DNA of 60,378 nt from Proteromonas lacertae. Taxonomy: Eukaryota. A program made the position numbers and the translations under genes. The stretch spans positions 186,001 through 246,378 of the forward strand of contig NGBS01000005.1 in assembly GCA_002245135.1 (NCBI GenBank). The letters are read 5' to 3'. Positions 634 to 52,134 of the stretch are shown piece by piece. Each line of letters opens with the position of its first letter. The first letter of the stretch is position 1. The notes beneath the pieces are model-generated. The model was not told the origin of the DNA and made no database searches. It saw only the letters and a list, made by a program, of their open reading frames with translations.

Positions 634-2622
634 ATGAAAGCTGAGTTAAGTATTTAATCTTTCTTATATTTTAATAGTTCTACTCATTCTAGTGTTAGTT
701 ACTTACTGTCAAGCTCAACAGGAGACAACTGTAAAGAGATCAGTGTATGCCACTGATACAGAAGAGTTACAGGATTTGACAAGAACTCCTGGCTCTATTA
801 CTCTATATAAAGATTATACAGTTGATATGTATGAATGGATTGTAACTTCGCCATATTTTACTAAACTGAATGGAAATGGTTATACAATTACGCTAGACTA
901 CAGAAATGTAAGAAGTGGAAAGCAATTGAGTTTATTCTCAGGCATGTCAGATAAGGAGGTGTATGATTTGAAATTTAAAACTACTGAGACTAGTTTTATA
1001 TCAGGTAGTTTATTTGGATCAATTACTAATTGTTATTTATATCATGTAGAACTAACACTTAGTTATGCAACTTTAAGAGATTGGTCAGTAAGTGATGGGT
1101 TAATATCTTCGGTAGTGACAAATTCAGCAATGCTAAATGTTGGTGTTACACTAACTTCTCTATTTACTGGTATTACAATGGATTATATATATTCACATGA
1201 CAGCATCAGCATAGGTATTATTGCAGGAAGTGTAAAAGGAACATGTACCTTTGCTGGATTATATGTATCAGGAAAAATAGAAGTTACATCAGGAGGGAAT
1301 TATAATAGTTTTGGTATATTATTTGGAAGTATTGAAAGTAAGGCAAATGTATTAATATCAACATCAACAGTTAATATTAATTATTTTAAGGCAGTATCAG
1401 CTCATTCTAATTATAGAGTAGGTTCAATAATTGGTAAGAACGAAGGAGGTAATGTTGAATTAAAAAAATTATTAGTTAATATATATGGTAATACACATCA
1501 AGAAGCATCTACAAGAAGTTCATTGTATTTTGGAACAGTGATCGGTTCTAGTAGTGGTAAAGTCATAATTAGTAATTCATTTATATATAATACATTTAAT
1601 GTAATTGAAATATATACAGGAGCTACCTTCAAAAGTGGTGGAGTTATAGGTACAGCAGAGTATTCAACATTATCAATTACTAATTCTTCAGTAATTATAA
1701 AGTTTTCATTAAATGCTATACCTACGAGTTGTTATGGTGGATTTTTAGTCGGTTATACTGATAGAGCTAATGTTAAATTAAACTACAATATGTTTGCTAT
1801 AATGTTTGTAACATTTAACTATCCATTTAAATATTATGATATAGGTAATGATGATTATTCAACATCACTTTCTGCAACAAATACATATTATTATTATAGT
1901 AGATATGGTACTCATACTATTTATATTAGACACTATTCCATTCAGCAATTAAATGGCCCTTTATCAAATCCTTCATTACTTTTACCTGATTTTAATTATG
2001 ATACAGAAAATAATTTAAATTATTATTCTAAAATGGCTCATTTATCCAGCAATGGATATTCTAATATAATAGATGACTCTAATAAAGATTTCTCTAAAGT
2101 TGATATTACATTCAGTGGAACAACTCCAAGTTATAAGAGTGATTATAGTTATATATATAATATCGATAATATTCCTTCGACAATTTCATCTAAATCATCA
2201 GATGATTTTTATATTATCTTTATGCCTAAATCATATGAAAGTTTTACTGTAGATTATGATGGTAGTCATGAATGTGTTAGTTCAAGTTATTTACCATTAT
2301 CTATTAGTCCAGCAATAAGATATAAAGCAATATTTACATTTTCATGTGAAAGAAAAATGAGTTTTGAATTAGTCATAAAATCCTCTAGCCATAACAAATA
2401 TTACAGTAAAACTGTATATTGGAAGTCTGGCGGAGATGATAGTGGTGGAGGTGGTGGCGGAGCGGTAGTGGAGATGATGGAGATTATGAAGATGAGTACG
2501 ATGACCCAAGAGAATCACTTGAAAGATTAATCACGCAAATCCTTATATATGGAAATGCTGGTGTTGCTGTTCTCATTGTTCTTATTTCTATTTGTTGCTA
2601 TTTCACAAATAGAAACAAATAA
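634..2622 (+). CDS. Type I surface protein, long form: signal peptide, GLUG/ZmpB-like beta-helical region, ~110 aa membrane-proximal domain, Gly/acidic linker, TM helix. Apparent -1 frameshift near 2462
   Basis: ATG 634 plus 28-nt intron 650-677 gives signal peptide MKAELILLILVLVTYCQA. Repeated G-x-I/L-x-G motifs. The TM tail (ITQILIYGNAGVAVLIVLISICCYF) is in another frame, as shown by comparison with copy 2. Confidence 0.7.
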
Positions 2623-2756
2623 CTACTAAAATGAATATCCAATTTAATATATATTGTTTTTTGTATTTTAAAGAATAAAAGAAAATAAAAAATGAAATTG
2701 TAGGACTTTTTAAGTCAAAATTTAGTTCACACTTTTTTAAATACTGTTTCTTTTCT

Positions 2757-4443
2757 ATGTCAGAGAATAACGCCACAAACAACTCAGCTCAAGTAACCAA
2801 CACATGCTGTTGTTTTTCTGTTTGTTGTTATTCATGTAATCTCTTCACTGCTTGTGTATTAGAAATTTGTTATATTCTTTTAGTTATTTACAACTATCAT
2901 GGGAATAATGGCATTTTTCTTTAACTCTGATTTATTCATGACATGTTGTGCTGTACTTGCTCTTGATATCATACAATATTCTGGATCTTGTTGTTTTGGA
3001 AGAAATAAGTGTTTCTATTATTTCGTATATCACTCATTATTTTATTTTTCTACTATATAGTCGATGTTTATGTCTGGAGTTACTTTCATCATTAACATAT
3101 CTTTTTCATAATAACAACTATAACAGTTTATCTTAATTATATATAAATAGCAATATCCATTTATACTTATTCTGAACTTATTAAAGAGTATATATATTCT
3201 ATTATATAATATAATTAGTAATAATAACAAAGTATTTGAATTTAGGACTATATTCAATGGTTTATTCACCTTTATTGGAATATTTAATACAATGTTCTCA
3301 GGTCTTCTTTTCACACAATCATCGATATATCGAGATAAATCTGCAATATGATCCCAGAGATTAGAACAATTGAAATGCAAAGAAGTGCAATTCCAATTGG
3401 AACAACAGTTGTTAACTGTTAATTCTCCTCCAATTGAAACTCAAAAACAACCAGAAACTACTAACGTAATTGGAACAACACAGCCATCAACTGTAATTGC
3501 AGTTGCTGGTAATAGTGTAGTAAATGCATCAACTGTTCCATGTGTAAATAATATAGATGAAAGTGATTTATATGATATTAAAAAATATGTGATAAGTGAT
3601 ATAATATTCTGCTCAATCTTCGTTATTTATACATTTGCTTATCCTGGATTTCATGATGATGCAATATCAGCTTTTGCTGTTATATTTCTTATATTTAGAA
3701 TTGCATATATGACATTAATTTGTATGAGAAAGTGGAGAACTTTAATCTATCAAATTGTTTATGTTGTAAATGCAATTGTATCTATTGGATATATATCATT
3801 TTTTTACTCATATAATATTATTAATTATAAATCCTTGACCAAAGATTTGTAAGTTGTTGTATTAATATATCTAATTACTCAAATGGTTAATTTTATCAAA
3901 GTTGCTGCTAAGAATGATGTTGACTTTTATAAGTGGCTTCTTGAGCATAAGGAGTACTTTCCTGATAATCCAACTGATGATAATATAAGAAGTATTGTTA
4001 AAGCCAACATGTAAAATGAATATTAATATATTATTTATAGATATGCGTATGGTATTACTGCCTTCTTCTTTTTCTCATTTTCTTGTGAAAGTGTATAATT
4101 ATATATATATTATATTATTCTATAGTTTTTTGTTACATTAGCTGGATATACACTTGCATTTCCTCCAAAGGATAACAATTCACAACCAAAACAAGAAGAA
4201 GATGTTGTTGTTTCTCTTGAAGATAATAATATTCCACAACCACAACCAGAGAAAGAAATAAATACTCCTGAAAACAATAATCCACCTATTCAACAAACAA
4301 CTATTGCTGTGAGAGAGTTACCAGATGCAGAAGAAATAAAAAAAGATGAAATTATTCCTTTTGCAGAAATAATTGTTGATGAAAATAATGAAAATGAAAA
4401 GACAAATACTCCAGATAATGATATACCACCTCCAATATTATAA
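2757..4443 (+). CDS. Multi-pass membrane protein of unknown function, copy 1 (Cys-rich N-terminus, two hydrophobic modules, acidic/Pro tail); reading frame disrupted at ~3345-3415
   Basis: Spliced model MSENNATNNSAQVTNTCCCF...PPIL*; paralogue of 10715-12395. Three extra bases and a TGA relative to copy 2. Confidence 0.6.
3097..3146 (+). other. U12-type (minor) intron, AT-AA termini
   Basis: 5' ATATCTTTT, branch-like TTTATCTTAAT, ends ...ATAA. Joins SGVTFIIN to IAISIYTYSELIK; I found no GT-AG solution for these frames. Confidence 0.65.
3793..3852 (+). other. U12-type (minor) intron, AT-AA termini
   Basis: 5' ATATCATTT, branch point TCCTTGAC at 3832-3839, ends ...GTAA. Joins SIGY to VVVLIYL. 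Confidence 0.65.
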
Positions 4444-9898: not shown

Positions 9899-10580
9899 AT
9901 GAAAGCTGAGTTAAGTATTTAATCTTTCTTATATTTTAATAGTTCTACTCATTCTAGTGTTAGTTACTTACTGTCAAGCTCAACAGGAGAAACACAACAA
10001 GATTACAAATTTTTTGAGTAGAAATCAAAAATTATTAAATGATAATTCATCTAAAGTTGATATTGAATTATCTACTAAATTCCCAAGTCTTAAAAGCACT
10101 CTAGTGAAGATAAACGATTATATACCAAGTACTATTTCTTCTTTATCAGATACATATAGTATTATGTTTGCCCCTGCAATTAGTTATACTACTATAACAG
10201 TGAGTTTTTTTGGCAGCCATCCGTGTGTTTCTTCAAGTGATTTACCTTTGACTCTACCACCATCAGTATTATATGACTTTGTTTATTTTGAATTTTTATG
10301 TAGAAGTACAACAACCTTTAAATTAAAGATAAGTTCATATTACGATACTGAGTATTACACCAAAACTGTATATTGGAAGTCTGGTGGAGGTGATGGTGGA
10401 GATGATAGTGGTGGAGGAGGCGGTAGTGGAGATGATGGAGAGTATGAAGATGAGTACGATGACCCAAGAGAATCACTTGAAAGATTAATCACGCAAATCC
10501 TTATATATGGAAATGCTGGTGTTGCTGTTCTCATTGTTCTTATTTCTATCTGTTGTTATTTCTCAAATAGAAACAAATAA
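9899..10580 (+). CDS. Type I surface protein, short form (signal peptide, ~110 aa domain, Gly/acidic linker, TM)
   Basis: Same first exon and intron as 634-677; intact C-terminal TM; lacks the ~435-codon beta-helical region of copy 1. Confidence 0.75.
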
Positions 10581-10714
10581 CTACTAAAATGAATATCCAA
10601 TTTAATATATATTGTTTTTTGTATTTTAAAGAATAAAAGAAAATAAAAAATGAAATTGTAGGACTTTTTAAGTCAAAATTTAGTTCACACTTTTTTAAAT
10701 ACTGTTTCTTTTCT

Positions 10715-12395
10715 ATGTCAGAGAATAACGCCACAAACAACTCAGCTCAAGTAACCAACACATGCTGTTGTTTTTCTGTTTGTTGTTATTCATGTAATCT
10801 CTTCACTGCTTGTGTATTAGAAATTTGTTATATTCTTTTAGTTATTTACAACTATCATGGGAATAATGGCATTTTTCTTTAACTCTGATTTATTCATGAC
10901 ATGTTGTGCTGTACTTGCTCTTGATATCATACAATATTCTGGATCTTGTTGTTTTGGAAGAAATAAGTGTTTCTATTATTTCGTATATCACTCATTATTT
11001 TATTTTTCTACTATATAGTCGATGTTTATGTCTGGAGTTACTTTCATCATTAACATATCTTTTTCATAATAACAACTATAACAGTTTATCTTAATTATAT
11101 ATAAATAGCAATATCCATTTACACTTATTCTGAACTTATTAAAGAGTATATATATTCTATTATATAATATAATTAGTAACAATAACAAAGTATTTGAATT
11201 TAGGACTATATTCAATGGTTTATTCACCTTTATTGGAATATTTAATACAATGTTCTCAGGTCTTCTTTTCACACAATCATCGATATATCGAGATAAATCT
11301 GCAATTGTCCCAGAGATTAGAACAATTGAAGTACAAGGAAGTTCAAATCCAATTGGAACAACAGTTGTAACTGTTAATTCTCCTCCAATTGAAACTCAAA
11401 AACAACCAGAAACTACTAACGTAATTGGAACAACACAACCATCAACTGTAATTGCAGTTTCTGATAATAATAATGTAGCAAGTGAATCAACTGAAGAAGA
11501 ATATGATTTAGGTATTACTGTTGATGAACTTAAAAAAATTAAGGAATATGTTGCAGGTGATATTATATTCTGTATTGTATTTACTATTTATACATTTGCT
11601 TATCCTGGATTTCAAGAAGATGCAATATCTGCTTTTGCTATTATATTTCTTATTCTTAGAATTGCATATATGACATTAATGTGTTTAGAAGTATGGAGAA
11701 CAAGAATTTATCAAGTTGTTTATGTATTAAATTCAATTGTATCATTAGGATATATATCTTTTAATTCAGATTTATATATCATTGTTAATCCTTAATTGTA
11801 GTTTCTAAGTTGTTATATTAATATGTTTAATAGTCTTAATGGTTGATTTTATCAAAGCAGCTTCAATGTCTGATGCAGAGTTATTGGACTGGCTTGCTAA
11901 ACATCCTGAATTTATCAATAAAAGAAATATTATATCAGGTAACATGTATTATAATAATCATTAACTATCAATAATACTTCTTATAGATATGCATATGCTA
12001 TTAGCGCATTGTTCTTTTTATCATTCACTTGCGAAAGTGTATATATATATATATATATATATTATATTATTCTATAGCTATATGTAACATATTTAGGACA
12101 TTCACTTGCATTTCCTCCAAATTGTTTCACTAAACAAAAGAAACAAGAAGAAAATGTTGTTATTCCTCCAACAGATAATAATAATCCACTATCTCAACCG
12201 GAGAAAGCAAATGAAGATAATAATAACACTCTATCAAATCCACCTATTCAACAAACAACTATTGCTGTTAGAGAATTACCAGATGAAGAAGAAATAAAGA
12301 AAGATGAATTGATTCCTGATGCAGAAATAAAAGTTGATGAAAATGACAAAATAAATACTCCAAATGGTAATAATTTACCACCTCCAATATTATAG
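10715..12395 (+). CDS. Multi-pass membrane protein of unknown function, copy 2 (intact)
   Basis: Open spliced frame using five GT-AG and two AT-AA introns. Confidence 0.65.
11055..11104 (+). other. U12-type intron, AT-AA termini
   Basis: Same sequence as 3097-3146. Confidence 0.65.
11754..11808 (+). other. U12-type intron, AT-AA termini
   Basis: 5' ATATCTTTT, branch TCCTTAAT at 11789-11796, ends ...CTAA. Interior has diverged from 3793-3852 but these signals are kept. Confidence 0.7.
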
Positions 12396-12803
12396 AAATC
12401 TACCAATTTCTAATTTCACTTGAATTTGAATATAATCAAATTTAATCATACTATTCATATATTCTTTGTTGTTTCATTATATAAAATCAAACACATATTT
12501 TTTACATAATTTAAAGAAAGGATTAAATAATTATGTCATTTCACTATTACTAACTTTGGATACATTTAATTTAACTAATATAGAAAATATTGATATTATA
12601 TAAATAAGCTGAAAACTATAACATCTCTCAAAATAATGAATTATATTATTTTCAAGCCTAAAAGCTTGAGTATTTTATTTTGTGAATGAATATTGAGATG
12701 CATATACTTTGATTCGAAATAAAAATACAATTAATGAGTTTTTATTATTTCAAACCCCAAAATAAACACATGATAAGGAAAGAAAATACCATTTCAAAGC
12801 TAT

Positions 12804-13896
12804 TTAAGCGCATCTTGTAGTCTGTCTATTTGATGATTGTTGAATATCTCTTTGAGTTGTAGATCGATTATTTGAAGAGGTTTCTGGTAGATTCATTCCA
12901 CTCTTTAAAAATGAACTTAAAGGAATAGATGTATAACTACTACTTGTGGTGTAACTTGTACGATAAGGAACAGTCTGCAAACCTAATGTATCAGTTGGAT
13001 GGCTTTGAACATATAATTGTTGTAAACCTTCATAATACTTCACTGTTTTAACACGTAACTCTAATGTAGCATCTTCATCACATACAATCACAGCTCTAGG
13101 ATGATTCTGTAAAGCAGAGATAGTCCACATATGAGAAACACCTTCTTCAATTCCTTTTTGTAAGGCAACTGCTTTATTTGAACCATTTACAACCAATAAT
13201 ACTTCACGAGCATCACATATAGTGCCAACACCAACAGTTAATGCAGTTCTTGGAACTTGAGTGAGATCATTGTTAAAAAAACGAGAGTTTGCACGAATTG
13301 TATCAATATTCTATATATAATAAAATAACACATAATATATATTATATATACTAATGTTTTTGGTCTAGTTCTTGATGTTAAGGATGAACCAGGTTCATTA
13401 AATGCAATATGTCCATCAGGACCAACACCCCCTAAAAATAACTCAATTCCACCATATGAAGCGATTTTTTCTTCATACTAAAATAATGTATAAAAATAAA
13501 TATACTCTTCTACATTCTTCTTCTAAATCTTCAGCATTACCATCCAATAAATTAGTATTTTCAGGTTTAATATCAACATGACTGAAGAAATTAGACCACA
13601 TAAAAGTATAATAACTTTGTTCATGGTTCTGAGGTATTCCACAATACTCATCCATATTAAATGAAACTACATTTTTAAATGATACTTTACCATCTTTGTA
13701 AAGTTCAATTAATCTCTATACAGCAATAATTTATATATTTATATACTCTATAAACACCTAATGGTGAACTTCCAGTAGGTAATCCAATAACAAATGGATG
13801 ATTCGGTGTTGGATTATACTCATTAATTCTCTTAGCTATGTAAGATGCAGCCCAATTGCTTAAATCTTCGTAATTATGTTGAATAATAACACGCAT
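12804..13896 (-). CDS. GNPDA: Glucosamine-6-phosphate deaminase (NagB/GNPDA), 4 exons
   Basis: [32 protein letters not shown] and [10 protein letters not shown] motifs. Confidence 0.95.
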
Positions 13897-14459
13897 TGTT
13901 TAATAGATGAGTATATGTGAAAGTAAATTGAAAATAAATCTTTCTTAAAAGATTTAAGAATAATATCGGTGAAGCGATATATTTATGTTGAGAACAAAGC
14001 ATATCCAATGGCTTTTTGCTATTGATATGACGCATAATGCATCTCTATTATTCTTAAAATCCATAAAAATCGATAGTAGGAAGTATTATTTGGATTAGCT
14101 CCGATTATGTTTCTTTCTTTTAATTACTTACATTTTTATAACTGAATAATTATACTTATACACAATTTTGGAATAATCATTACTCTTAAACAATTTCTTC
14201 AGTAGATTGCTTATAATATGTATATAATTGATAAGCAATCATATAAGATAGATATTTAAAACACTTGTTGTATATTCTTTAACACTAAGAACAAATAAAC
14301 TAACAATGCTAATTAAAACTTTTCTACGCTTTTTTTTCTTCGTGCATATACGCTATTAAATTCCTATCTGTTACATGTGAATAACATTCATTTATCAATC
14401 ATCTTTCATATCATGTCATTGAGATTGTAAATTACATTTTTTTGACTTTTTTCGTTTTT

Positions 14460-17400
14460 ATGTCAAAAGAACATACTGTGAGAGCTTTGGTGATTGTTAA
14501 TGTCCAAGTATTATTGCTCTAATGTTTTTATAATTAACTAGAACGATTATTTCCCAGGAGGTGCTTTAAGTATTGATGATGCTCCAGAAATTATCCCAGT
14601 AATAAATAAATTAAGGCGTAAAGATTTTGACTATACAATAATACTACAGTTGTGGCATCCACTTAATCATTGGTATAATATTTATTTTATATTCTTTTAT
14701 ATAGTTCATTTTGTTCAAATAACCCAGTATTTCTATAGAAATTTACTTATATTTTCCTTAGGGATATCCATTAGATAAAATTAGTCATTTGCCAGTTATA
14801 GGTTCTCAAATGTTGTGGCCAGACTTTTGCATTGCTGGTACAGCAGGTGCTGAGTTACATCCAGACTTACTTGTGAGAGGATCTGATATAATTGTAAGAT
14901 GTGGAACAGATCCAACAATAGATAATTGTATGAATCATTTCATATATAATTAACAATAGATTCTGGTTTCAGAGAATATAAAAAGAGTGAGCAAGGTCTT
15001 CTATCAGAATTATTCACTCAAAAATCAATAAAAGAGGTATATTTCTGTGGATTAGCTGTTGAATATGGTATTCAGTTTAATATATTAGATTGTGGCATAT
15101 ACGCCCCAACAGCGAAGATATTCTGTATAACAGATGCATGTAGAGGATTTAATCAAGAGGATGTGAAAGAAGTTTATAAAAAATTAGAATATGAAAAAGT
15201 AAGGACAGTATTATCAACAGGTTTAGAATTAATGCAACTAACAGAAAAAGATTTAAACTCATATACACAGAATACTTCACTCTGTGATATAATATGTAGA
15301 GGAAATGGTAAATATGAATTAGGTAAAGAAACACTACAACCAGGTGAAAAACCATATGTTGATAAAAAACAGAAATTTACACGAATAAGTGATGAAATAA
15401 AAGGATGTAATTTGCTTAGAGGGCAGAATATTGATAGATGTAGTATGTCCTCTGAATTTATGTTGTTAACATTTAGAATTAGATGTAGTTTATATATACT
15501 ATGGCCTGTTAACAATGTAGAAGCAAAATGGTTGAAATCTTATCATTTTTTAAAAACCAATTTTACTGCTTATACTGATTCAGGCAATTTGTCATTTAAT
15601 GTCTATCAAAAGAATGATATTATTAAACCTGGTGATCAAATTGTGCTAGGCGGAAGTGAAGGTATTTTGACAGATGAAAATACTACAAGTTATGTTGTTT
15701 GTTTTAGAGAATTACGTATATATATATATATATATTTATGTGTAAATAGAAACCGAAGTAAGTGATTTATGTAATGCAATATATTATGAATCAGATGATT
15801 TCATAACCAAATTACTAAAACAGTGTCCAAATCTGAATGGTTCAATTCCTCCACTAAATGAAACACCATTTCATTGTGCAATTAAATCAAGAAAACAATT
15901 TGTAATAAAATATTTAATGGATAATAATGCTGATATAAATGCAATAGATCGTAATGGAGAAACGCCATTACATTTAGCTTGTAGAATGAATGATATTGAC
16001 ATAATTAGTAAATTATTGATAATAGGTAATATTGATGTAAATATTGCATCTTTAATAGATGGTTATACTCCTTTAATGATTAGTTGTGAATTGGGTAATA
16101 TTGGAGCTGTTGAATTACTATTAGATAAAGGTGCAGATGCTTTAATTGAATCGTTTTATCAAACTACACCATTGTTTTTATCAATGAAACCTAATTATGG
16201 TGAAATGGAAAATGTTTCTTTAGAATTAATGAGAATGATATTTAGTAAAGTTGGTAATATGAATGCTAAAATTGAATTAATGAATTCCGAAGATAAACTA
16301 GGATGGAGTCCAATGTTCTTATTAGGTAAAACTGGATTATTAGCTGAAATAAATAGTTCTACAAACTTTGAAGTTTTACAATCGATGCCAATAAATAAGG
16401 TTCTTAAACAAGGATATTCATTTTTAGATATTATTACATGGAATGACCAATGTGATACAATATTCTGTTTACAAGATTCTACATATGATATTTGGCAAGA
16501 ATCATTGGTTGTTAATCGAATTAATGAAGAAACTGGATATAGTGAATTAGATTATGCTGTATGAATATAATCTGTTTATTATCATTATAATTTATAGATA
16601 TTAAAAGATCATTTTGATTGTATTTCTGCTTTAATATTAGGTGGTTCACATGTTACAAGATGTTCAGGAATATCAGTTAATAAAATATTGAATTATATGA
16701 TATTAGGTGGTGATATTGAAGCTGTAGAAGGTTTGTTGAGGTTTGATGAAAATAATATTGAAATTGATGATTTATTATTAAAATTAACAAAAAGAATGAA
16801 ATGTATGTATTCTAATGATTAATATATAATAATATTATATATAGACACTCACAGTTGTACATTCTCATTTGCAACATTTACCAATCCAATATCTCAACAT
16901 ATATATCACTGTAATGATTGTGATTCAAACATATGTTTGGTATGTAATAGTATTTGTCACAAAGAACACGATACAGTTTATATTGGACTAGTACAAGACA
17001 CTTATTGTGGATGTCAAAAGAATACATGTCAAGCAATACTTGGAGTAGATAAAAGAGAATCAGAAGGTTATAAATACGTTCCAATTCCAATTGATTCTTC
17101 CTCCATTCCAGATAATCACGATTTAGATATTTTAGTGGAATGTTTATCAGAGAATAGTCATGAAGTGTGGTGTTCTGAAAAAGTAGATGATGGGTGGAGA
17201 TATGGACCAAAAAGAGATAATGCGAATAAAATACATCCAATGATTAAAGCTTGGTGTGATTTGTCTGCTGAAGATAAGAAATGGGATATTGATGCTGCTA
17301 AACATAGTTTGAAATTGATTGAATATTTAGGATATGATCTTGAGTGTGTTTCTGAAGATATTTGTAAAGAATATATTGAAGAACATAATATTAAGCAAAG

Positions 17401-20400
17401 GTATATATATAAATATTATCTAGTTATTATTATTATTTAAATAGCAAAAGAAAATATATTCCAGATCCATTAGATACTTCAACAATAGAAGTTTCAATGG
17501 AACAACTTCCGTTGGTTCATTTATTAGCAAGAAACACACATGAAGAATGGTCACAAGAGAAAATGAAAGCAGGATGGAAGTATTCACCTGATCCAGCTAC
17601 AGCAAATAATCCAAAGGTAAGTTCAGAATTAGTTCCATACGAATATTTAACACAATCTGAAAAAGAAATGTGTCAAGTAAATGCATTGGAAATGATTAGA
17701 GGTATTTTGAAATTAGGATATACAATAAAGAAAAAAGAAGGAATGGAAAATATGACTGATAACTTTATGGATTTAAATGACATGGAAACTTTGAAAGATA
17801 ATATTGATCAAACTGAAAGAAATAAGATTGAATTATTCAATTTGTACTTGTTAAGAGCTTGTAGAAATGATCAAATTGATATTATTCCTAAATTGATATT
17901 ATCTGAAGACAGTATTATAGCTAATATTGATACGCAAGATAGTTTTGGACAATTTTCATTATTCATTGCAATTAAAAGAGGTTATATTGCCATCTGCGAA
18001 TTGTTGATAAAGAACAAAGCACAAATTGAATTAACAGATAATAATGGAACAACTCCATTGATGTTAGCTTCATTCTTAGGAAATTTCAAAATCTGTGAAT
18101 TATTACTAAGAAATGGAGCAAAAATTGAAGTGGAAGATAAAAGAGGTTTTACAGCAATACATCATGCCTGCGCAAATGGCCATGCACAAATCTTATCACT
18201 TTTATTAAGTGAAAAACATATTGATATTGATAATTTATATCATTCTGAAAATGATACTTTAACAAATCAAACTCAACAGAATAATAATAATAATAATAAT
18301 AATTTGAGTAGAGTATCTCAAAAAGAATCAGTAAAATCAACAAATCCTGATGATTTATTGTCACCAGATACTCCTGTCAATAATAAAAAATCTATGTTAA
18401 ATTCAAGAATGGTGATCAGAAATCTACAAGAACAAATGAAAAGTACAAAGACACCATTATCAGCAACAACAACCACTTCTGGTGGTAATACAAGTAATTT
18501 GACATCTGCAAGGCATGTTAATTTACATACATCACAAAAAGGAATGTTAAATACATCTGTTTTACATAGAAATAATAATAATGATGGATCTAGACCATCT
18601 ACAGCTGATAGTTCAAATGGAAATACTGTCAGAATATCAGTTAGAATGGGAAATGATATAGATGAAGAAAATGAAGAAGATGATGATGAAAATCATGAAA
18701 AAGCAAAAAAGGTATTAAATGGATTTAGTCCATTAAGTTTAGCTGTAAAAGCTGGTCATGTTGATGTAATTAAAGTCTTATTAGATCATGGAGTAAACCC
18801 AATGAAAGAAGATGGAACTCAAATTACACCATATGGAAGAGCATTATTGAAAGAAATTGCAGCAGCAATAAATGAAAACGAAAAGAAGAAGGCTGAAAAT
18901 AATGGAGAAAATGGTGATAATGAAGAAAATAAGAATGATGAAGATAAAGATAAAGAAAGAAAAAGATCATCAATATATCAAGGTAAAATAAGTCTTAATG
19001 ATCATCAATCTATAAGACAGAATAAGACTTCAATTAATCCAACATCAATACTGAAACCATCAACTCATGCTTCAACACTTCCAAAATATTCTTTGAATGT
19101 GAAGAATTCAATTCAACCACAACAAGATTCTACTAATGGAGTTAGATTATCATTGATTAAGAAGAGTCTACCTTCTGGTTTTCAAGCACCTGATATAAAT
19201 CAAATATTAAAAGAACAAGCAAAAAGAGATAAAGAGAAAAAAGCAAAAGAAATAAAATGGTGGCAATTTTGGAGAAAGAGACCTACAAAGAAACAAAAGA
19301 AAAAAGTAATACAATATGAATCACAAAAGAAAGTTGAGTGTTATTATGAAAATTTGCATATTAATGATAAATGGACAAATGTAATAATCAAAGACTTAAA
19401 GGAAAGACAACAATCAGAACCTGTTTCATCAAAATTACACAATGCTCAAGTGGTAGAATTATTATCAACATCACCAGAAGTATCAAAACACAAGATGGGT
19501 TATGGTATAAAACAATTCGTTTGGGAAGCTGTGATGTTTTTAATTGTTTATTTGGTGTTTTTAGTATTTACACCTGTATTCTTGGATTACCATTCTGAAG
19601 AAGAAACTATGTATCAATATCAAGTAGAAAATGATTTAGAAAATTATGGTTTTACATCAATTCAGTCATTTGATGATTTGGAAAAATGGACTTTGAGATA
19701 TTTTCTGGATTCTGGAATAACTGGAATGTTTGATGCAAGTATATAATAATATATATAATAATAATATCTTTTATTTAATAGCAAAACCACCAACATATCA
19801 TAGTAGTAGTTATGTATTTGGAGCATTATATATAAAAGAAGAATCCTATAGTACATTAGAATGTGAAAGTTTTGATAGAGTAATATTGAATGGAAGAGAT
19901 GAAATATGTGTAACTGGTGATGTTTATACTAGTTTTACAAAGAAATTGGGATTGTTTGATTTAGAAGAAGCTAAAAAAGAATACCAAGATGAATTATTGC
20001 CAATATTATCAAACAATCTAACTCAATCAGTGGATTATTATTTTCATGTTTTCAATCCTACAACCAGTAGAATATGTCAAATTGAATTAATAGTAGAAAG
20101 ATTAGAAACAGGAGAAATTAATCCAAAGCATAAAGTTACAACAATTATATTTTCATCCAATAGATTTCCACCATCTGTATAATATAATTATAATATATTC
20201 TTCATATTATATTTGTATTTAGATTCCTTTTGAAATAGTAGTTATTTTAGAGTTTATATTTGAAATGTTTTTTAAAGTAAGATACATCATTCAAAGTAAA
20301 GGTTTGGGAGATCAATTAAGAGATTTCTGGATGATTTATGATTGGATTATAATATTATGTCTATTTGTCTTAGGAATTGTAGATATTGTTTTAAATGTTA

Positions 20401-21398
20401 TTGTATATATATAAATATATTAATATATAAAATAAATAGTATCAAAAACATACAATTGATGTTTTATCATCAGATTTCATAGATTATTCATCATTAATAT
20501 CATTAGTAAAATATGAGTTAGATTTTATATCTTTTATATGCTTTTTATATGGTATGAGATTCATTAAATTTGTGCGTTTGATTCCAGGATGGGGACCAAT
20601 GATTTTAGCTGTTTTAAGAACTGTAGTTGATATTGATGTTTTGCTATACATTTGTGTATTCTTCTTTTTAATGTTTATATTAACATTTTGTTATATTATT
20701 GGATATGGTCCAGAAATAGTAGCTTTTGATGAAATATTTAAAACATTTTTCCATTTATTTTGCTCAGCTTTCAATCATGGATTTTCTGTCTTATTTAATT
20801 TAGATAGAAGATTTATGTTCACAGTTTATTTCTTAATATATGTTTTATTAGCAGCAATTTTGGTGAACTTGTTTATTGCTATTGTTTCCAGTGTATATCC
20901 TATTATTCGTGATCAATCTTATTTGAATTGGCATATATTAATGGCAGAATATATGGCTGATGATTATATAACAAAACAAACAGATAAAAAGAATAATTAT
21001 AGATTAAGAAGGAAGAGTATAATATATGATTTATATGATGAATTATATTGGGGTGATTTGATGGAAGGAAGAGATGGTTTGGTATATTGGACACCTACAG
21101 GCTTGTTTAGAAGAACAAATGAAACAAAGAGAAAGAATAAAGTATTTATATAATATTTTATTATCTTTAGAAAACAGCTGAAACTGAGATTAATCCACAA
21201 GATGAAAATCCAATCAATGAAGGGTTATTGGATGATATTAGTAAAATAAAAGTTAATATTGCTGAAAATACAACGACATTTTCTGAATTAACTGATCAAT
21301 TGACTGCGTTATCTGAAAAGATTAGAGTAATTGATTCAACATTAACAAGATTGAGTATAGTTCAAAATAAGATGTCTAAAAGCATAAAAAAGAAGTGA
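14460..21398 (+). CDS. PKD/TRP-type cation channel: pseudo-nicotinamidase, beta-sandwich, ankyrin repeats, UBR-box zinc finger, 2 RyR repeats, ankyrin repeats, 6-TM channel, coiled coil
   Basis: Continuous spliced frame through GT-AG introns from ATG 14460 to TGA 21396-21398. Ankyrin GETPLH/GYTPLM motifs; RyR LSENSHEVW...GWRYG and LARNTHEEW...GWKY; S4-S6 RFIKFVRLIPGWGPM...LVNLFIAIV. Confidence 0.85.
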
Positions 21399-21518: not shown

Positions 21519-22532
21519 ATGGAGAACTACCACATTTTGGTATAGATAATTTAATTATGTGTAGGAATATATTGGTAAAGGATCTTTTGGTGAAGTATAT
21601 AGAGGAAGAAGAAAGTATACTGGTCAAATAGTTGCAATAAAGTATATTCCTAAAATAAAAAAGGATGAAAATAATTTGAGTGACTTGAGAAGGGAGATTG
21701 AAATACTTCACAACCTTAATCACGAAAATATCATCTTTTTGATGGACAACTATGAGACAGAAGAAGCAATATGCGTTGTAACTGAGTATGCACATGGAGA
21801 CCTATACCAAATAATTTCTGAAGACGGCAAATTACCAGAAGAAACATTAAAAGTGCTAGCCAAACAGTTAATAGAAGCATTGTGCTATTTACATACAAAT
21901 AGAATCATTCATAGAGATATGAAACCTCAGAATATACTGATTACTGGTAATGAAATTATCAAATTGTGTGATTTTGGTTTTGCTCGTCACTTATCAGCTA
22001 AAGTATAATTATATATGTATTAAACTATCAATAGACAACATTTGTAACATCAGTAAAAGGTACACCACTCTATATGTCACCTGAATTAATTGAAGAAAAA
22101 CCATATTCATATTCTACTGATTTAGTATAATATATCTCTATATCTTTCTAGTGGTCATTGGGAATAATATTATTTGAATCAGCTACAGGTAAACCTCCCT
22201 ATTTTACTTCAAATATTTGTACATTAGTGAATCTTGTAAGAAAAGTATGTTTAATTACTGTTATTATTATTAAAATAGAATGCAATTGAATATCCTGATG
22301 ATTTATCGCCTGATTTATTATCATTATTAAAGAGCTTATTAAAGAAAGATCCAAATGAAAGAATTGGTTGGCCTGATTTATCTACTCATCCATTTATCAC
22401 TACTGCAACACCACAATCATTAGAGAAATCATATGAAGTATCAAATAATAGAGATAGAATTGAACTATTTACTAAATTAATACAAAATAACTTATTACAA
22501 GTGAATAATAACAATAATAATAATAATAACGG

Positions 22533-22570
<38 letters not shown>

Positions 22571-23326
22571 TGATGAGTTTTCTACTATTTATATGGAAGA
22601 GAATACATTTACTGAGTTTGAGAGTGTTGCTTCAGAATTATCAGATAATTATAATTGGAAAATAAACTCTGAAGAAACTGAGGATAATAAAGAGAAGTGT
22701 TTACAATTATTAAAAGATGATAATATGTTTTATCAAAACTCACATCATGCATTAGAGACTAATATCAAATCGTATTATATATATATATATATACTTTTAT
22801 ACTTATTATAATAGTGAAAATAATGAAATATGTAATTGTATTATAATCACATTAAAGAATGTAATTGAATTTGATTCTAATGTTGTTTCGTCTGTTAGTA
22901 TTATATGTAAAATAATGGAAATTATCTTGAAATACTATGACTATTGTGTTAATAATGGACTTGTAGAAGTTGAAATGAATTGTATTAAAACTATTAATGA
23001 AATATTATTGAAATCTTCATTCCATTTATATAGTAATGGTATATTATTATAATATATTATTGTTTCTATATAGAATTGAAATCAATATTCCCAAAACAAC
23101 TTCTATTTAGATTAATCTCTAGAAATTTGACTGTATTATTTTATTGATATAATTATTTGACTGAATAGCCAAATTCAAATCAAGTAGAAGGTGTAATAAT
23201 CCAAAGTATAAAGTTGTTAGGCACAGTATTTGATATCTTTACAACATATCCATTCACATTACAATCACAAATTAAAGAGATTATGAATTTAGATATCTTA
23301 TCAAAGTGTATACAATTATTAACATC

Positions 23327-23364
<38 letters not shown>

Positions 23365-25726
23365 TATTAGAAATGAGAATATATCTAGTTTATGTATTCA
23401 CGCTTTGGCATTATTACTTCATCCTATTACTATCATACTGAATGAAAGACGATGTTTTCCATTTTCAAGTTGTTGTAATAGTGCATTATTAACTGATGAG
23501 TTAAAGTCATTGTATATTTATATATATAACAATTTATATAATATATAAGACGATCAAATACAAATATAAGTCAACAGACTATGAAAGAACAACAAAGAAT
23601 AAAACAAATGATTAATCTTAGAGTACAAGAACTATTCACTACATTTCCACAATCTCGTCAAGTTCTTTCTAACTATTTATTGTCAAAACCATCAATTCAT
23701 TCAGCTGTATATAGAATATTGATTCATTTAAATCCTAATTGTGTTATATTGAATGATGAAATTATGAATATAATAATGAATATATCTAAACTTGATAAAG
23801 TTACTCAAGGATTTGATTTATTATATATTTTAACATTAATCAAATCACAATCAATGGAGTTAAAATATTATGTTGAAGTAATGGAATTAGCATTTAAATA
23901 TGTTAGTGAAAGTATTGAAATATCAACTATTGGTTGTCTAATAGTCAACACGGTTATTCAGAGTATATATATATAAATATATTGTTTATATATATAGTAA
24001 GTTCAAATGAAGAAAATAATATAAATGTTAAAAGTCCAAATAGAACATCCATCTTACAACAATTTAAACAACTGATACAATCATCAAATAATATCGTCGA
24101 AGTGTATATATATATATCAATTATATATTTATTTCCATAATAGTATTTTTAAACATTTACAATTTGGATCATTAGCTTCAATAATGGAAAGTAAAAGTCA
24201 TTCATTATTGCCATATCGTTTTATTGGTAATGAATATGGTTTATGTAGTATTGGAATATTGGATAGTTTTGTTAAATTGTTAGATAATATATTGGAAGTT
24301 GAACCAAATTATATTAACATTATATTTCAAAAGAGTGAATATTTTAATGAATTACATAACTTAGTATATATATAATATATATAATTAAATAGTTAATGGG
24401 TAGTCCTTTTTATGATTTATCTACCATAGGATTAATATCTTTGATAAAAATATTCAACAAACTATTACATTTCAATAAAACACTCTACAAAGACAATAAT
24501 TTCAATATTATGTTATGTTTCATTGAAATTGTTAAAGAGAAACATATTAATTGTATAATACAATACCCATATGATGGTTTATCAAATGCTATATTGTTGA
24601 TGAAGACTGTTAATAAAGAAATAATGAATATTATACAAGAGCCAGTATTAATATATATATATATATATTTGTTTTATTATATACTTAATAGAATGAGAAC
24701 CAAATCCAATCTGTACTATTCAACAATAATCTATTAATATCATATGTTGTAAATATTAATACATTTTTAAAATATGGCTTATCGATGGTATTATTAACTG
24801 ATATCATTCATTCTGTATATTTATTGTTACAGAAAGATAAGTGTTTTGTTAATCAATTCATTGAAAGTGGTGGTTTATTACCCATTAAAAACTATAAAAT
24901 ATTCAATGAAGATAATATTGATGATTTAATAATATCATATCTGTTAATTATTTCTTTCATTTGTAAAACAGATGGTAAATATTATAATGTGTTAAGTTCA
25001 ATGAATATTTTGAATGAATTATTACCACTTTTTGATAATAGAAACGCATTAGTAAAATCCAATGTATATTTATGTGATTTATTAATTATAGTTATGTTAT
25101 TGTTTTGGTAATTTATTCAGACATGATAAGACATTTATAATTCCTTCAGCAAAACAATATACAAATAGTAAGACTAATAAAAGTGAAATTTGTCTTAATA
25201 GATTGGTAGAATTATGTAGAGATAATGATGATAATACAAGAAAATATGCTTGCTTTGCTGTATATAGATATATATATTATTGTTATTAATTATGTGATAT
25301 ATATTATAGATTGGTAATGCTGCATTTATAAGTAGTGAAGTATATACTTCCTTGAAGAATGGAATTGATATCATCATATCTTTGTTAGATGATAGAAATG
25401 AAAAAGTAAAAGCAAATGCCATAGGAACACTAGGCAACTTGGTTAGAAACAGTGATGAATTATGTAAAATAATCGATGAGAAAAGGGGAATAAAGAAATT
25501 AATAAGTATTTGTCTAAATAATCATAGTGATGCTATTGTTGATTTGAGTTTATTCAGTCTTGGCAATATATGTAGTTATGATGAAATGAAAGTAATTGTA
25601 AAGAGAGATTATGTATAATTCTTTATATGTATTTTATAGCCTCAATTCATTGACTGGTTGACAAGAATGTATAAATCAAAATATACTAACAATATTAGTA
25701 GAATTAAAAAGAAATTAGATTTATAG
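21519..25726 (+). CDS. STK36: Fused/STK36 (TIO-like) Ser/Thr kinase with C-terminal ARM/HEAT repeats
   Basis: [63 protein letters not shown]-terminal [13 protein letters not shown] and [14 protein letters not shown]. Confidence 0.9.
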
Positions 25727-25816
25727 AGAATATTATTATTGATGATTATTATTTATTTTTATATTTCACAAAACACCACATAACTATTTATAATATGATT
25801 ATATTATATCAAATAA

Positions 25817-28800
25817 TTAACTATTTGAATTGGTAGTTGTATTCTTTTGAGTAAGAACAGTAGGAGTAATTGAAATTGATGTTTGAGGTGCTTTGGTTGA
25901 TGCTATTCCAGAAGTTCTATTTGAATAACTACCAAGATTTTTTTCACTATTTATAGACATTCTTGACTTTGAAGCAGAAGAGAAATTGTTTGTCTGTAGA
26001 TAAAATACATCTCCTGCTGATATTGTGCATAACCCAACATCACCTACTTCAAATACATTTGGTCTTAATTTAAATCTACCTCTCATCACTCCTTTTCTTG
26101 CAATACTTCTACTTTGTTTGGAATTATTGGAATTTGAGCCTGATGACGATGATCCCATTGTTGTTGTGGTGAAATAATAAAAGAACAGTTTAAATTTTGC
26201 AGCAAATTGTAAAACTAAAACAGCTATTACACATAATTCTACACCTATTCCTCTTAACATCATTAAAGTATCTGGTTGTTTAGCCATCATTAGATTCAAT
26301 GGAATTTCTAATATTCCAACAATAACTATTAAATTATATAAATAATAAATATAATATACTCATTATTCCTATTATTGAGGCTAATGTCTTTGATTCATTG
26401 AATTCGGATGAAGCTTTTCTTGTTTTCCATGCTAATCTTGCACCAAATAAGAATATCACTATTACTACACCAATTTCGATAAATGTAAATATATCATTTT
26501 CAGTACACTCTCTAATATAAACATCTTCTAAATAATTTGAATAATCTACACTATAGGTTTCAGTATAAACTGACGGATCTATTACCCACCAGACTGTCAA
26601 ATAGATTATTTGAACTAATTCTATTCCACCAATAATCTCCAATAACATAACATTCGATATTTTTACTTTCTTCATTTCTTTATTATTAAATAACTTGTGT
26701 ATTCTCCACGCTTTACATAACAATATTCCAAATAAGAAATCAACTGATAAAGCTACTAGCCACACTCTTAATGCACAAATCACATCATTTGGAGCTATTG
26801 TGAATATAAATCCAGACACACTTAATGCTATTAATGATACTAATGTGTAAGACAAAAATAAAGGTGAAGATGCTTTGATTATTTTCAAATGTCGGTAACT
26901 TAAGTACACCAACTAAAGCAGCAATACATATTAGAATCAATATTATCATTAAAACCATTACCAAGATTTTCAACGCTTCATTTGTCTCAAATAATACTTT
27001 ATCTTTTCCCAATTCACATTCAGAATTCTTCATATATGTCATTTGAGGTTCTAATATTTCTTCTTTTCCTTGACTTGGATAAACTTTAGATAATCGACCA
27101 CTCATTATTCTGAATAAATAAATTGGTTTTGTTGCATGATTGTTATATTTAATAGCCAAATTTCCACTCGGACTCTTGAAAGATACATACTTTATACTCA
27201 ATAGTTTATATCTTTTACTTGGCCATTGTTTTGTATCTTTCAACCCTTCTTGTTCAGCTGCATATTCAATCCCAGATTTCCATAAATATAACGAGGAATA
27301 ACTCACTTCATACATCTCATTCAAACTAATTGCATTTTGGAAATACGATTTCACTGTTTGGATAAATGCTTCTGCTTCAGTTGTAGTTAATGAATCGGTA
27401 AAGGATGTTGTTATATAATTACCCAGATATTTCATTTAAGTTTTCTTTATCAAAATCAGATTCATCATAATTTAATATTACAAATATAAAAGAGGACTTG
27501 GAGATTCCTGAGTTTTTAAAACGCTTCATACATTCATTATTATCTTTTCCTCGGAATAAATTAATTATAGCGAATGATTTGTATGTCAACGCAAGCGAAG
27601 TTAAACTATCATAAAGTTGAGAATATGAATTATCATTATATGGTGATAAAAAGTATTCTCCTATATATTCCATTGATTTACCATTAATATATTTTTTTAT
27701 ATAATCAGCTACTACTGATGTTGAATTATCAGTATTACCAAGCACGAATAAATAAGTAGTACCAATTGATTCTAAATAGTTTATTGTTCCTTCGATCTTC
27801 TGATTTATTGACATTCCCATCGACACTATTGAAGGTGCACATAAATTACCATCATCTGTACCAAGGAAGAAGAATTGAAAATCACTATCAACTGCACTTA
27901 TATATCGATAAACTTCATCTCGACATTTGGAACTCATACATCCAAATAAACCAACTGCATCTGTTTCTTGATCTATTGTTCTAACTGTTGAATATATCTT
28001 ACTTTGAGTTATGAAATAATGTTTAGCTATAATCTTTCTTCCATTTATACCTCCTTCTGAATTGATTTTTTCAATTGTCATATCTTGAATTAATAGATTT
28101 TGTTGTTCGGATTTACCACCTAAATCTATTTCATGTAAAAATGCAGTATGTATTGGATTTATATCAAATTTCTCGGATTTTTTGGTTTTCCAATCACAAT
28201 TAAAACCAACATCATCTCCTTCGATTTGATTATATACATCTGCTTCGACGGATTTCGAAGGCATCCAGTTTATATATATTTCATTATTCTCAGTTATATA
28301 ACCACTATATATATTTCTTTTGAAGAAATGATTAACTGCTAATTCGATACTTCCACTTGGAACATCTAATTGATAGTCATATTTAAATTCTACTTCTTTT
28401 GGATTTATTGAATTAGAATTTTGACAGATATTCTTCCAATATAATAATAATGCATAAGCACTTTCATATTGAGTTCTTATTTTCATTTCATCACCTATAT
28501 GAACATGTAATCCTTGAGAAAATACGGAAGCTAAAATTGGTATTGATACAGATGAAAGATCTTTAGATCTGGATTGATTCAAAATAACTACCAATCACTA
28601 TATGTCCAGATAAATACTTTGATTCTAAATCATTGAAGATATTTTCATCAAATAAAGTATTATAAACGGTATATTTTGGATATGTTAAACCTAATTCATA
28701 CATCGCTTTATAAAAATGAATGTAATATTCTTTACTTTCAAAAGTTGCTATTATATAACCACCATTTGGTATTGCTTGTTGAATTGTTCTAAGTTGAATA

Positions 28801-31800
28801 TTTGTCTTTTTCAAATCATATTCAATATTACCCATCAATAATACATTCGTATAACTCATTCTTGCTTGAATCATATCATTTACATATATTGTATAATTAG
28901 ATGGAGAATATACTGTTATCGCTGAAGTTGTATCTTCTAAGATTCTTCTTATTGTTATTGCAGCTATTTGACTTGGATGTAATTCACTTACTATTACATT
29001 CTTTGGACATACTTCACTGTATGTATGACCACAAAAGAAGAATAGCTTGTCTTTTTCTTTCATTTCATTCACTATTATTGGATAATCATCTGGATTATAT
29101 CCACCAAATATATAATCTATTCCATCTTTTTCTATTTCTTCGAATATTGATTTATAGTTTTTTGGATCAGATTTTACATCATATAATTTATAATACAATT
29201 GATAAGTAAGTAATTGCTCATAAGTATTTAAATATGTTATACCAGCTAGAATTGAATCAAATATTGGCTTTTCTAAAGGTGCTTGATTGCCAGTAAGTGA
29301 TAAAACTATTCCAATGGTATAAGTCGGCATTGACTTTCCATTTCCTATTGTTAAATCATTGAAATTACACATATAATAATTACCATCACTTGTCATTGAA
29401 AATGCTTTTGGATAATGCATTGTTTTAGCATCATACACCAACTTCCATTCATTATTCTTATTTTTATATGATATTTTCATTATTCTTCCTAAATATTGAT
29501 TTACTCCATATCCTACTAATCCTTCGGGTAATTCCATTGCTTCTTGATTTATTAACTCTTTTCGAACTTCTTTTTTGCTAAAGGTCTTTGTATTATCAAC
29601 TGCTTTTGCCCATAGTTTGATTGCAGAATATAATCCAGATAGAATATCATTTATGTATACTTCATTTCGATTTAATCTTTGATAAACATTATTAACAAAT
29701 TCTTTATTAAGTTCACTTTCATCTTCTCTATAATAACTCTGAATTACTTCATAATCATTATATTTCGACAATAATATAGCAGATGTTGGATCTGCTACAA
29801 TTATATGAATATGATTTTCATTCAATTGCTCAGCTTTTAGTTTATCAATTAAAAAATCATAATCCTCTAGATATCCACTAAAGAGTATACATACAAAAGT
29901 ATCTTCTTTTAATGAATCTTTTATTCTTTTTATCTGTTTTGAAATTTCATCTTTTGATTTAGCTACAACTGATATTTCATTAAAACTTTTCAAATATTCA
30001 TTTATATAATCTCCTGATTCAGAATCAATTTCTTTAGGAAAAGCTATTAAAAACTCATCATAATTTCTATTTCTTAACACATTTAAAGCTGAATCATATA
30101 AACTAATATGATCATTTGAAGTAAATAAAAACTCTTCACAACTCCCGATTGGATATTTAAATACATTGAATATTAGTATATCATTTGCTTTTGCATAATT
30201 ACTTATTCTATCTATACATTTTATACTATCTCCCAAAAATATAACTTTTGGATTATATACACCGATAATTCTAACCATCTCGTCACCACAGTTTTCTAAA
30301 TCAGATAATATATCATAAACAGCTGTTTCTAATTCTATTCCATTTACTCCACCATTATTATTTATTTCTTCTATTGCCATTTTGAATATATCTATTTCAC
30401 CTTTATTTAATTCACCTAATTCGCCAGATAGAGATGAAGCTAATAATACTCTTTCAGCTTCTATTAGAATATTGACTATTATTAACTGATGGAGCAAATG
30501 AACACATCATTCTAAAAGTCTCAGGAATATCCCAACTCCAAGGTCTTGGATCTACATACTTTTGTTTTGAATATGCTAATGAGAATTTTCCATTAGAGTC
30601 AAATTTACCAATATAAAACGGAGATGCTGGATAATGACTTGGATCAAATGAAAATTCACCTAAAGCATCATGTGTATTAACTTCTAACAGCTTCTCTCTT
30701 ACTACATCAGTATCAAATGATTTGGCTGCTTTTACTGCTTCTAACCACATCTTTATACCAAAATTTGCTGTATTTGTCAGTGATGTTGGTTCTGTTATAT
30801 AAGCATAATTATTCACAACTTTCTTAAATTCATCATTTGATTCAGATTCAATTACTCCAAAATATTCAGCTACTAGAAATACATTTTCTATGAATTCAGC
30901 TCTAAAAGGTTCATATTTTCCTATTTGAGATCTTGTATCAATAAACATATATTTATTCTTATCATAAGCAAGTTCATTCACTGCAATTAAAAACTTCTTC
31001 AATACATTTGTATCACTGATTGTGAATAATACTAAACCACCTCCATCCATTTTATCAATTAAAGATTTTATCCTATCATTTTCTACTCCTACTGATGAAT
31101 CAATTACATAAGCTCCTTTATAAAAATACATACCTCCACCTTGAGATTCGGCTATTGTTGATATTATTGTACAATCTTCTTTATCTTCAGTAATTGATAC
31201 AAAATTAGAAACTACTTCATCAGATATAAAATATTCTAATATTTGAGGAATATATTGATTTGGAGTTGGTCCTAAATAGAATGTATCATAATCACATTCT
31301 TGACCATAAAATCTATCAACATAGAAGAACAGAATATGATGTTTCTTACACACTTTTTGAGCTATTTCTTTACATTCTATATCTGTACATCCTATTGTCA
31401 TTTTCAAATCAAATTCTGTAATTTTTGAATTTAGATCCTCTTCATATAAACCCAAATCAGGATTATAATCAACTAAAATAGGTAACACTATTTTATCTAA
31501 TATGACTCCTTCTTCTAATTGTTTATGTAAAGCAGATAAAGCACCATATAACGATTTTTTATGCAAATCTTTTCTAACTCCATTTAAATCAAATATTAAG
31601 CCAACAGTAATATATTCATATTCATCATACACACCATTTTCTATATCACATTTCTGTAAATTTGTTCTTTGAAATAGAGTCAAAAATCCATTATTTACAA
31701 CTGGAAAAGAGTATTCATAATCAGAAGTTAATACCGCATCACCATCAGTAGAAAATGTTCTAGTTAAAATTTTAAAAGAACCATCAACATGATTATTACT

Positions 31801-51955: not shown

Positions 51956-52134
51956 ATCTCATTTTCTCATTCCTTGATTTTTATTGTTTTTTAGATAAAA
52001 TAATAAAACCTAATATTTAATACAATGATAAAGTCTGTGATACTGGTCTTACACCTGTTGATCTTAACATTTTAACTTTTGGGTGTTCCAAAATTTTGTT
52101 GTGATTTTGTTTTTAGCATATTTTGACTGAAACA

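Follow-up and report, generated by a model that had tools for sequence, protein, structure and literature searches.

Background

The pyridine nitrogen of the substrate is what binds the metal in nicotinamidases, and the catalytic lysine is thought to stabilise the cysteine thiolate (PMC6271260). Changing this lysine to alanine in the O. iheyensis enzyme (K104A) left 1.45% of the activity, a figure that comes from refolded inclusion bodies, as its authors caution (PMC3581539). The same domain serves as a metabolite-binding regulatory module in a protist. ERM-BP, an Entamoeba transcription factor, has an intact triad and is catalytically active; its K150A mutant kept NAD+ binding with reduced catalysis, while a cysteine mutant lost NAD+ binding altogether (PMC7379229).

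Enzyme folds of NAD+ metabolism are also found attached to TRP channels. The NUDT9-H domain of TRPM2 is active in invertebrates and dead in vertebrates, where it still binds its ligand, and gating of Nematostella TRPM2 does not require the enzyme domain attached to it (PMC8145809). OSM-9/OCR-4 and Nan-Iav are activated by nicotinamide, an endogenous agonist of invertebrate TRPV channels (PMC5064019); nicotinamidase is itself an insecticide target in the same mechanosensory neurons as the nicotinamide-responsive TRPV (PMC5064019, PMC9683716). In choanoflagellates, according to a 2026 preprint, TRPV carries an isochorismatase-like domain C-terminally, as do 14 of 18 Craspedida TRPVs (bioRxiv 10.64898/2026.06.15.732245); the main text of the preprint makes no mention of nicotinamidase, nicotinamide, RyR or stramenopiles.

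Among the eukaryotic channels examined in PMC7399828, only RyRs and oomycete PKDRRs hold RyR domains. PKDRRs are stramenopile channels with a polycystin-like domain and a tandem RyR pair, described as confined to oomycetes (PMC4820453, PMC7399828). The main text of PMC7399828 and one of its supplements do not mention nicotinamidase, isochorismatase, Hondaea, Blastocystis or Labyrinthul-.

Gene structure and domain order

The window, a 60,378-nucleotide stretch of Proteromonas lacertae DNA, is AT-rich (20-30% G+C per kb) with short introns. On its plus strand, positions 14460-21398 carry a channel gene that reads as one frame of 2,163 residues after splicing of 12 introns, from the ATG at 14460 to the TGA at 21396-21398, with no internal stop. 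All 12 introns are GT-AG and 29-46 nt long, and leaving any one of them unspliced truncates the frame. Those between exons 1 and 5 measure 32-35 nt and have 9-21% G+C. Along the chain the order is a nicotinamidase-like domain, a beta-sandwich, ankyrins, a Cys/His finger, two RyR repeats, further ankyrins and a TRP-type channel.

A preliminary description of this DNA had assembled peptides of a nicotinamidase from five small exons, mostly missed by the open reading frame (ORF) track, in a frame that continues into an ankyrin/RyR/PKD channel. Joining exons 14460-14507, 14542-14672, 14705-14726, 14762-14927 and 14960-15715 produces every peptide quoted there, so the splicing stands, but the fifth exon is 756 nt long and is present in the ORF list. 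The frame does run on into the ankyrin, RyR and channel regions, across eight further introns to the TGA; a beta-sandwich of 150 residues between the nicotinamidase-like domain and the ankyrins had been overlooked.

Replacement of catalytic residues in the Proteromonas domain

Exon 1 (14460-14507, residues 1-16) supplies the start codon and the first strand of the nicotinamidase fold, with Asn14 (codon 14499-14501) in place of the catalytic Asp. In exon 2 (14542-14672, residues 17-60) a metal-binding Asp has become Leu53 (14650-14652) and the metal-binding His55 is kept (14656-14658). Exon 3 (14705-14726, residues 60-67) is 22 nt long, and its peptide aligns without gaps to all full-length relatives. 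Exon 4 (14762-14927, residues 68-123) retains the lid Trp86 and has Phe89 (14825-14827) for a metal-binding His and Cys114 (14900-14902) for the catalytic Lys. The first part of exon 5 (14960-15231, residues 123-213), in which the domain ends, keeps the cis-peptide motif and carries Gly159 (15067-15069) where the catalytic Cys is expected.

The reference profile for these assignments was built from 80 bacterial stand-alone PncA enzymes only (loci L001-L080, the best 80 of 489 confirmed matches). Residues 3-206 of the spliced domain match it at E 3.9e-55 over profile positions 15-215 of 220. The likeness is also visible before splicing: tblastn with the Hondaea domain on the unspliced window gave matches in exons 2, 4 and 5, in that order, and exons 4 and 5 alone match the solved nicotinamidases 2WT9 (E 4e-8) and 1ILW (E 3e-4), respectively.

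Set against this profile, the substitutions named in the preliminary description proved real, both in the triad (D>N14, K>C114, C>G159) and among the metal ligands (D>L53, H>F89), leaving His55 as one of three ligands. The corresponding bacterial columns are nearly invariant, with the catalytic D in 80/80, K in 79/80 and C in 80/80, and the metal-binding D, H and H each in 80/80; the Cys column is not an independent control because the 80 enzymes were chosen by a pattern that fixes that Cys, the other columns being unconstrained. The fold motifs were likewise said to remain, and they do: the cis-peptide motif (G153-L154-A155), lid Trp86 and most cavity residues are in place. By sequence, six of the eight cavity residues listed in PMC3581539 equal the bacterial consensus, and F>Y19 and S/T>N163 differ.

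With all three triad residues replaced, the Proteromonas domain is, as predicted from its residues, catalytically dead. Canonical nicotinamide binding is also predicted to be lost, since it is by way of the metal that nicotinamide binds (PMC6271260), and the copy has replaced the cysteine as well as two of its three metal ligands. The need for that cysteine in NAD+ binding by ERM-BP (PMC7379229) argues in the same direction.

Changes from the bacterial invariant columns number 20 of 53 and fall on five of six catalytic or metal positions and 15 of 47 others (Fisher p 0.024). Identity of the domain to the full-length relatives described below is 36-46% for six of seven and 28% for the seventh (P0086). 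The other regions give 24-29% (first ankyrin), 28-36% (RyR pair), 29-42% (second ankyrin) and 29-39% (S4-S6), all values being a rough measure from local alignments of unequal length. The nicotinamidase-like domain is by this measure among the best-conserved parts of the protein, which points to continued selection on it and not to a decaying relic.

The fusion in other protists

An exhaustive HMMER search with exon 5 gave 68 hits, and two region searches added seven more proteins. A word-index search with the same exon on longer proteins had returned nothing among 711 candidates of 441-2000 aa, whereas the exhaustive search did find relatives. Two hits, P0005 and P0059, were dropped as repeat artefacts.

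A look for the fusion in other stramenopiles, as the preliminary description had proposed, was productive. Eight full-length relatives (P0044, P0082, P0083, P0084, P0037, P0063, P0035 and P0086) have the same order from nicotinamidase-like domain to channel. The ORF of P0044 is complete and comes from a transcriptome. P0083, from Hondaea fermentalgiana (GBG29206.1), has no annotation beyond that of an ankyrin protein, and P0053, P0100 and P0101 are fragments from Cafeteria roenbergensis; both species are bigyran stramenopiles. The fusion hinges on the junction at intron 5 (15716-15749), and two close relatives, P0002 and P0003, read across it in a single frame with no intron, P0003 also without a gap. 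Because eight full-length relatives share the domain order, one of them as a complete transcriptome ORF, the fusion is not a splicing artefact; the sequences indicate that it is real and old.

One further protein, P0087, has the rest of the architecture and begins at the apparent last residues of the nicotinamidase-like domain, so that it speaks neither for nor against the fusion. In metagenomes, six of 163 pattern matches were loci with the finger-RyR region. Of these, L084 and L086 extend far enough upstream, and in both the nicotinamidase-like domain lies on the same strand; L085 holds only its tail, and the three others start inside the ankyrin region and contain none of it. L086 is close to the Cafeteria protein. 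Four loci (L081, L083, L084 and L085) bear one assembly prefix and have a family member each, and they may be paralogues in one organism or come from several related organisms.

In a tree, one branch (98/90) separates 14 domains that are fused or putatively so from 42 other rows, among them 40 bacterial loci, taken as every second one; the tree is unrooted and contains no eukaryotic stand-alone nicotinamidase, and therefore names no donor. The five most decayed domains also group together (98/88), on long branches, and this result was not relied on. Full-text searching of the literature, which mostly leaves out subscription journals, found no description of a nicotinamidase-ankyrin-RyR-channel protein. 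This conserved channel family is apparently undescribed.

Catalytic residues across the family

The catalytic Lys is present in none of 18 family rows (16 rows of the profile alignment and two loci), against 79 of 80 bacterial stand-alone enzymes. Its column holds Ala in ten rows, Cys in three (the Proteromonas copy, P0100 and L086), Thr in two, and Ile, Leu and Ser in one each. Downstream ankyrin, RyR or channel sequence is seen in 14 of the 18 rows; P0023, P0051, P0085 and P0100 lack it as retrieved. The count leaves out six fragments that stop short of this position and another four hits, short ones that lack channel domains: P0049, P0052 and P0060 with Lys and P0031 with Arg. P0049 and P0052 lie outside the fused group in the tree.

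Thirteen relatives have the whole domain. Nine of these, spanning as far as Hondaea and Cafeteria, keep the Asp, the Cys and all three metal ligands and have 8-12 of the 53 bacterial invariant columns changed. This pattern resembles the signature of a domain that binds but barely cuts. The remaining four have decayed further (24-34 of 53 columns changed), as has locus L084, and their sites were lost in different ways. The Proteromonas copy belongs, from its residues, to the further-decayed type; Gly at the nucleophile column recurs in the three of its close relatives that cover it.

Among solved structures, Acinetobacter PncA gives the best match to the family domain (E 1.5e-41). A comparison of predicted structure with PncA, also proposed in the preliminary description, was carried out on the Hondaea homologue, which is modelled as a nicotinamidase fold (pLDDT 92.8, TM 0.84 to 2WTA, the Acinetobacter enzyme).

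Beta-sandwich, finger, RyR and channel regions

The second part of exon 5 (15247-15715, about residues 219-374) encodes the beta-sandwich, modelled at a mean pLDDT of 91.8. Structure comparison gave a single clear hit, to a domain of the glycoside hydrolase 6HPD (E 9.9e-8, TM 0.80), and weaker ones to a GH138 enzyme. Its sequence relatives in the exhaustive HMMER search are mostly long proteins with repeated copies. The domain occurs in bacterial multidomain proteins. No Pfam family covers this bacterial-type domain, and ESM Atlas returned only unnamed bacterial clusters for it (0.95-0.96, recognition below threshold); with P0044, the same resource gave only generic ankyrin-TRP clusters, below 0.9. 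Since the beta-sandwich is present in the closest relatives only, it is taken as a later insertion.

Exons 6-7 (15750-16802, residues 375-713) form the first ankyrin-repeat region. It is followed by a Cys/His-rich finger (16845-17040) with eight Cys and one His invariant in 7/7 aligned sequences; Pfam does not name it and scores it weakly, as a B-box (E 0.022) or a UBR box (E 0.26 in P0087). The tandem RyR repeats (17075-17733, Pfam E 8.6e-23 and 3.2e-21) are split by the intron 17401-17444. A second ankyrin region (17848-18810) is broken by a low-complexity stretch.

The channel domain (19528-21141, exons 9-12) consists of S1, a loop of about 185 residues, S2-S4, S5, a pore loop and S6; five of its segments were found by hydropathy and S4 by alignment, making a six-helix domain whose pore loop separates S5 from S6. 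Alignment within the family is good over the S4-S5 linker, the pore helix and S6. Exon 13 (21171-21398) encodes the C-terminal tail and the stop.

The earlier label, PKD channel, is loose. The pore exon passes the Pfam cut-offs narrowly (Ion_trans 25.1 bits against 25, PKD_channel 24.3 against 22.4), the solved proteins closest to it in sequence are TRPC3 and TRPC6 (E 9e-8), and no PKD2 entry reached E 10 in the comparison with solved structures. Polycystin_dom scores for the S1-S2 loop vary (E 0.079 in the Proteromonas gene, 1.2e-5 in P0037 and 0.001 in P0087). By sequence the protein is a TRP-type channel subunit, with membership in TRPP not established.

Comparison with described systems

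Likeness to PncA/Pnc1 (PF00857; 2WT9/2WTA, 9U8M, 1ILW, 3PL1) extends to the fold, motif order, lid Trp, cis-peptide motif and most cavity residues. The differences are the missing Lys throughout the family rows, the further loss of Asp, Cys and two metal ligands in the Proteromonas copy, and the attachment to a channel. The choanoflagellate TRPV shares the principle of a TRP channel bearing a PF00857 domain; there, however, the domain is C-terminal, whereas in the stramenopile family it is N-terminal, and the partner is a channel with a long S1-S2 loop, an RyR pair and a Cys/His finger.

Oomycete PKDRRs share the tandem RyR pair and apparently a polycystin-like domain, but their RyR pair follows the channel (PMC4820453). 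In the Proteromonas protein it lies at about residues 790-995, between the ankyrin regions and N-terminal to the channel at residues 1593-2015. The protein is not an oomycete PKDRR, since its RyR pair is on the other side of the channel. The Pythium protein P0088 has a match to the RyR repeats at E 6e-18, a weak one to the channel at E 5e-5, and none to the nicotinamidase-like domain, ankyrins or finger. On the evidence of its domains the present family is an exception to the statement on RyR domains in PMC7399828, and adds a third kind of RyR-repeat channel to the two named there.

Like TRPM2 (PMC8145809), the family joins an enzyme fold of NAD+ metabolism, active in some lineages and dead in others, to a TRP channel. 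The enzyme fold, ligand, position and TRP family all differ, and binding and gating are proven for TRPM2, whereas the stramenopile family is known from sequence. By analogy, TRPM2 may nonetheless be the best model for how the fused channel works. ERM-BP offers the precedent of a nicotinamidase domain used for regulation, in a transcription factor and not in a channel.

Possible roles of the domain

The preliminary description had suggested a pseudo-enzyme reused as a metabolite sensor that would gate a cation channel, an interpretation that is supported in part. The reading that we favour, at slightly less than even confidence, is that the nicotinamidase-fold domain is a built-in regulatory sensor, derived from a nicotinamide- or nicotinate-binding module, that tunes channel opening. 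Loss of the Lys would have come first after the fusion, slowing hydrolysis and leaving the metal and pyridine pocket intact, so that nicotinamide or nicotinate would be held and not turned over. The ankyrin-finger-RyR scaffold would then relay occupancy to the pore and so link the flux of cations, probably Ca2+, with the breakdown or salvage of NAD+. The Proteromonas lineage would later have lost two metal ligands and the Cys, and its copy may bind weakly, without metal, or to another small ligand.

The lysine-only state is the expected look of a sensor that binds but barely cuts, because Lys mutants keep residual activity or NAD+ binding (PMC3581539, PMC7379229), and by analogy this is the likely ancestral role. 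Judged on their residues, the lysine-only relatives fit the sensor reading better than the Proteromonas copy does. Gating by a ligand is close to an evenly balanced question for these relatives, tilted if anything against, and is rather unlikely for the Proteromonas copy. Two cautions apply. Fusion does not imply coupling, since Nematostella TRPM2 gates without its enzyme domain (PMC8145809), and the nicotinamide-gated animal TRPVs belong to a different TRP family from the fused stramenopile channels.

The strongest competing explanation, still somewhat unlikely, is that the domain is kept as a structural or docking module for assembly, trafficking or partner binding, with no small ligand, here and perhaps throughout the family. 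The metal site has been lost repeatedly (in four of 13 relatives, L084 and the Proteromonas copy) under a conserved fold, and losses by different routes are not easily reconciled with a shared essential ligand. Columns that are fixed in the family yet rare in bacterial enzymes (R41 12/12, K43 10/12, N66 11/12, E201 11/12) are what a new interface would give. A pure scaffold, however, would not need the Asp, the Cys and every metal ligand that nine relatives keep without the Lys.

A different ancestor, which we consider improbable, would have been a slow channel-enzyme whose lysine-less domain hydrolysed nicotinamide slowly or held a long-lived nicotinoyl-cysteine, timing or clearing a signal much as invertebrate TRPM2 acts on ADP-ribose, with the Proteromonas copy as a dead end. 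The intact nucleophile Cys, Asp and metal site in nine of 13 relatives are consistent with this, as are the residual activity of lysine mutants (PMC3581539, PMC7379229) and the active-to-dead transition documented in TRPM2 (PMC8145809). Selection for catalysis should nevertheless have left the Lys in some members, and none of the 18 has it; nor can the explanation apply to the Proteromonas copy, which has Gly at the nucleophile position.

It is very doubtful that the Proteromonas copy was instead re-purposed for another ligand, or for a new metal or redox site made from His55 and the nearby Cys60, Cys90 and Cys114. The change of Lys to Cys in both Proteromonas and Cafeteria, the retained lid Trp and cavity Tyr/Ser, and the carbohydrate-enzyme-type beta-sandwich inserted beside the domain in the Proteromonas lineage would accord with such a change. 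Finally, that the nicotinamidase-like part is a separate gene or pseudogene fragment, fused only by gene modelling, is highly implausible. In its favour, retention of intron 15716-15749 would stop the frame at 390 aa, and the motif at 15696-15703 is one that we take to be a Blastocystis polyadenylation signal. Against it, that motif occurs 12 times in the window, also inside long reading frames, and both the intron-free crossings of the junction and the eight full-length relatives contradict a split gene, which we rejected.

Returning to the sensor reading, one relative would extend it. P0085 (JGI, 1120 aa) has a SMODS-associated NUDIX domain and a further NUDIX-like region (PF25969) before its lysine-less nicotinamidase-like domain. 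A search for its contig gave 41 pattern matches, none confirmed. No NUDIX domain was found in the ORFs scanned, and tblastn with the NUDIX-bearing part of P0085 found no match in the window. A wider proposal, which we regard as possible and put forward tentatively, is that a ligand-gated TRP-type family in stramenopiles reads nicotinamide (or nicotinate) through a nicotinamidase domain disarmed by the loss of a single Lys, as a second independent TRP fusion beside the choanoflagellate TRPV. With the ADP-ribose-hydrolase-type module that P0085 adds, a single chain could then sense the two halves of cleaved NAD+. The natural series from lysine-only loss to loss of the whole site offers a soluble domain for binding measurement, and with the family one can ask directly whether a protist cation channel can be gated by the status of NAD+ salvage.

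Neighbouring genes

Upstream, an intron-split gene on the minus strand (12804-13899), by eye glucosamine-6-phosphate deaminase-like, points away from the channel gene, with about 560 bases between the two. Past the end of the channel gene, at a distance of about 170 bases, a Ser/Thr kinase (21565-25900, plus strand; Pkinase E 2e-47) with a long helical C-terminal region begins, presumably resembling the Fused/STK36 kinases. A very large class C GPCR-like gene (26334-37149, minus strand) encodes 7tm_3 (E 3e-37) after many tandem periplasmic-binding domains, with nine Peripla_BP_5 stretches across four ORFs; so many ligand-binding lobes in a row on one receptor are unusual. Positions 49799-56660 hold three near-identical tandem copies of a three-ORF unit with a period of about 2,361 bases, the third diverging. 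The segments 650-4300 and 9915-12400 are duplicates. Each has a gene for a secreted-type membrane protein and one for a small membrane protein, the former gene being much shorter in its second copy.
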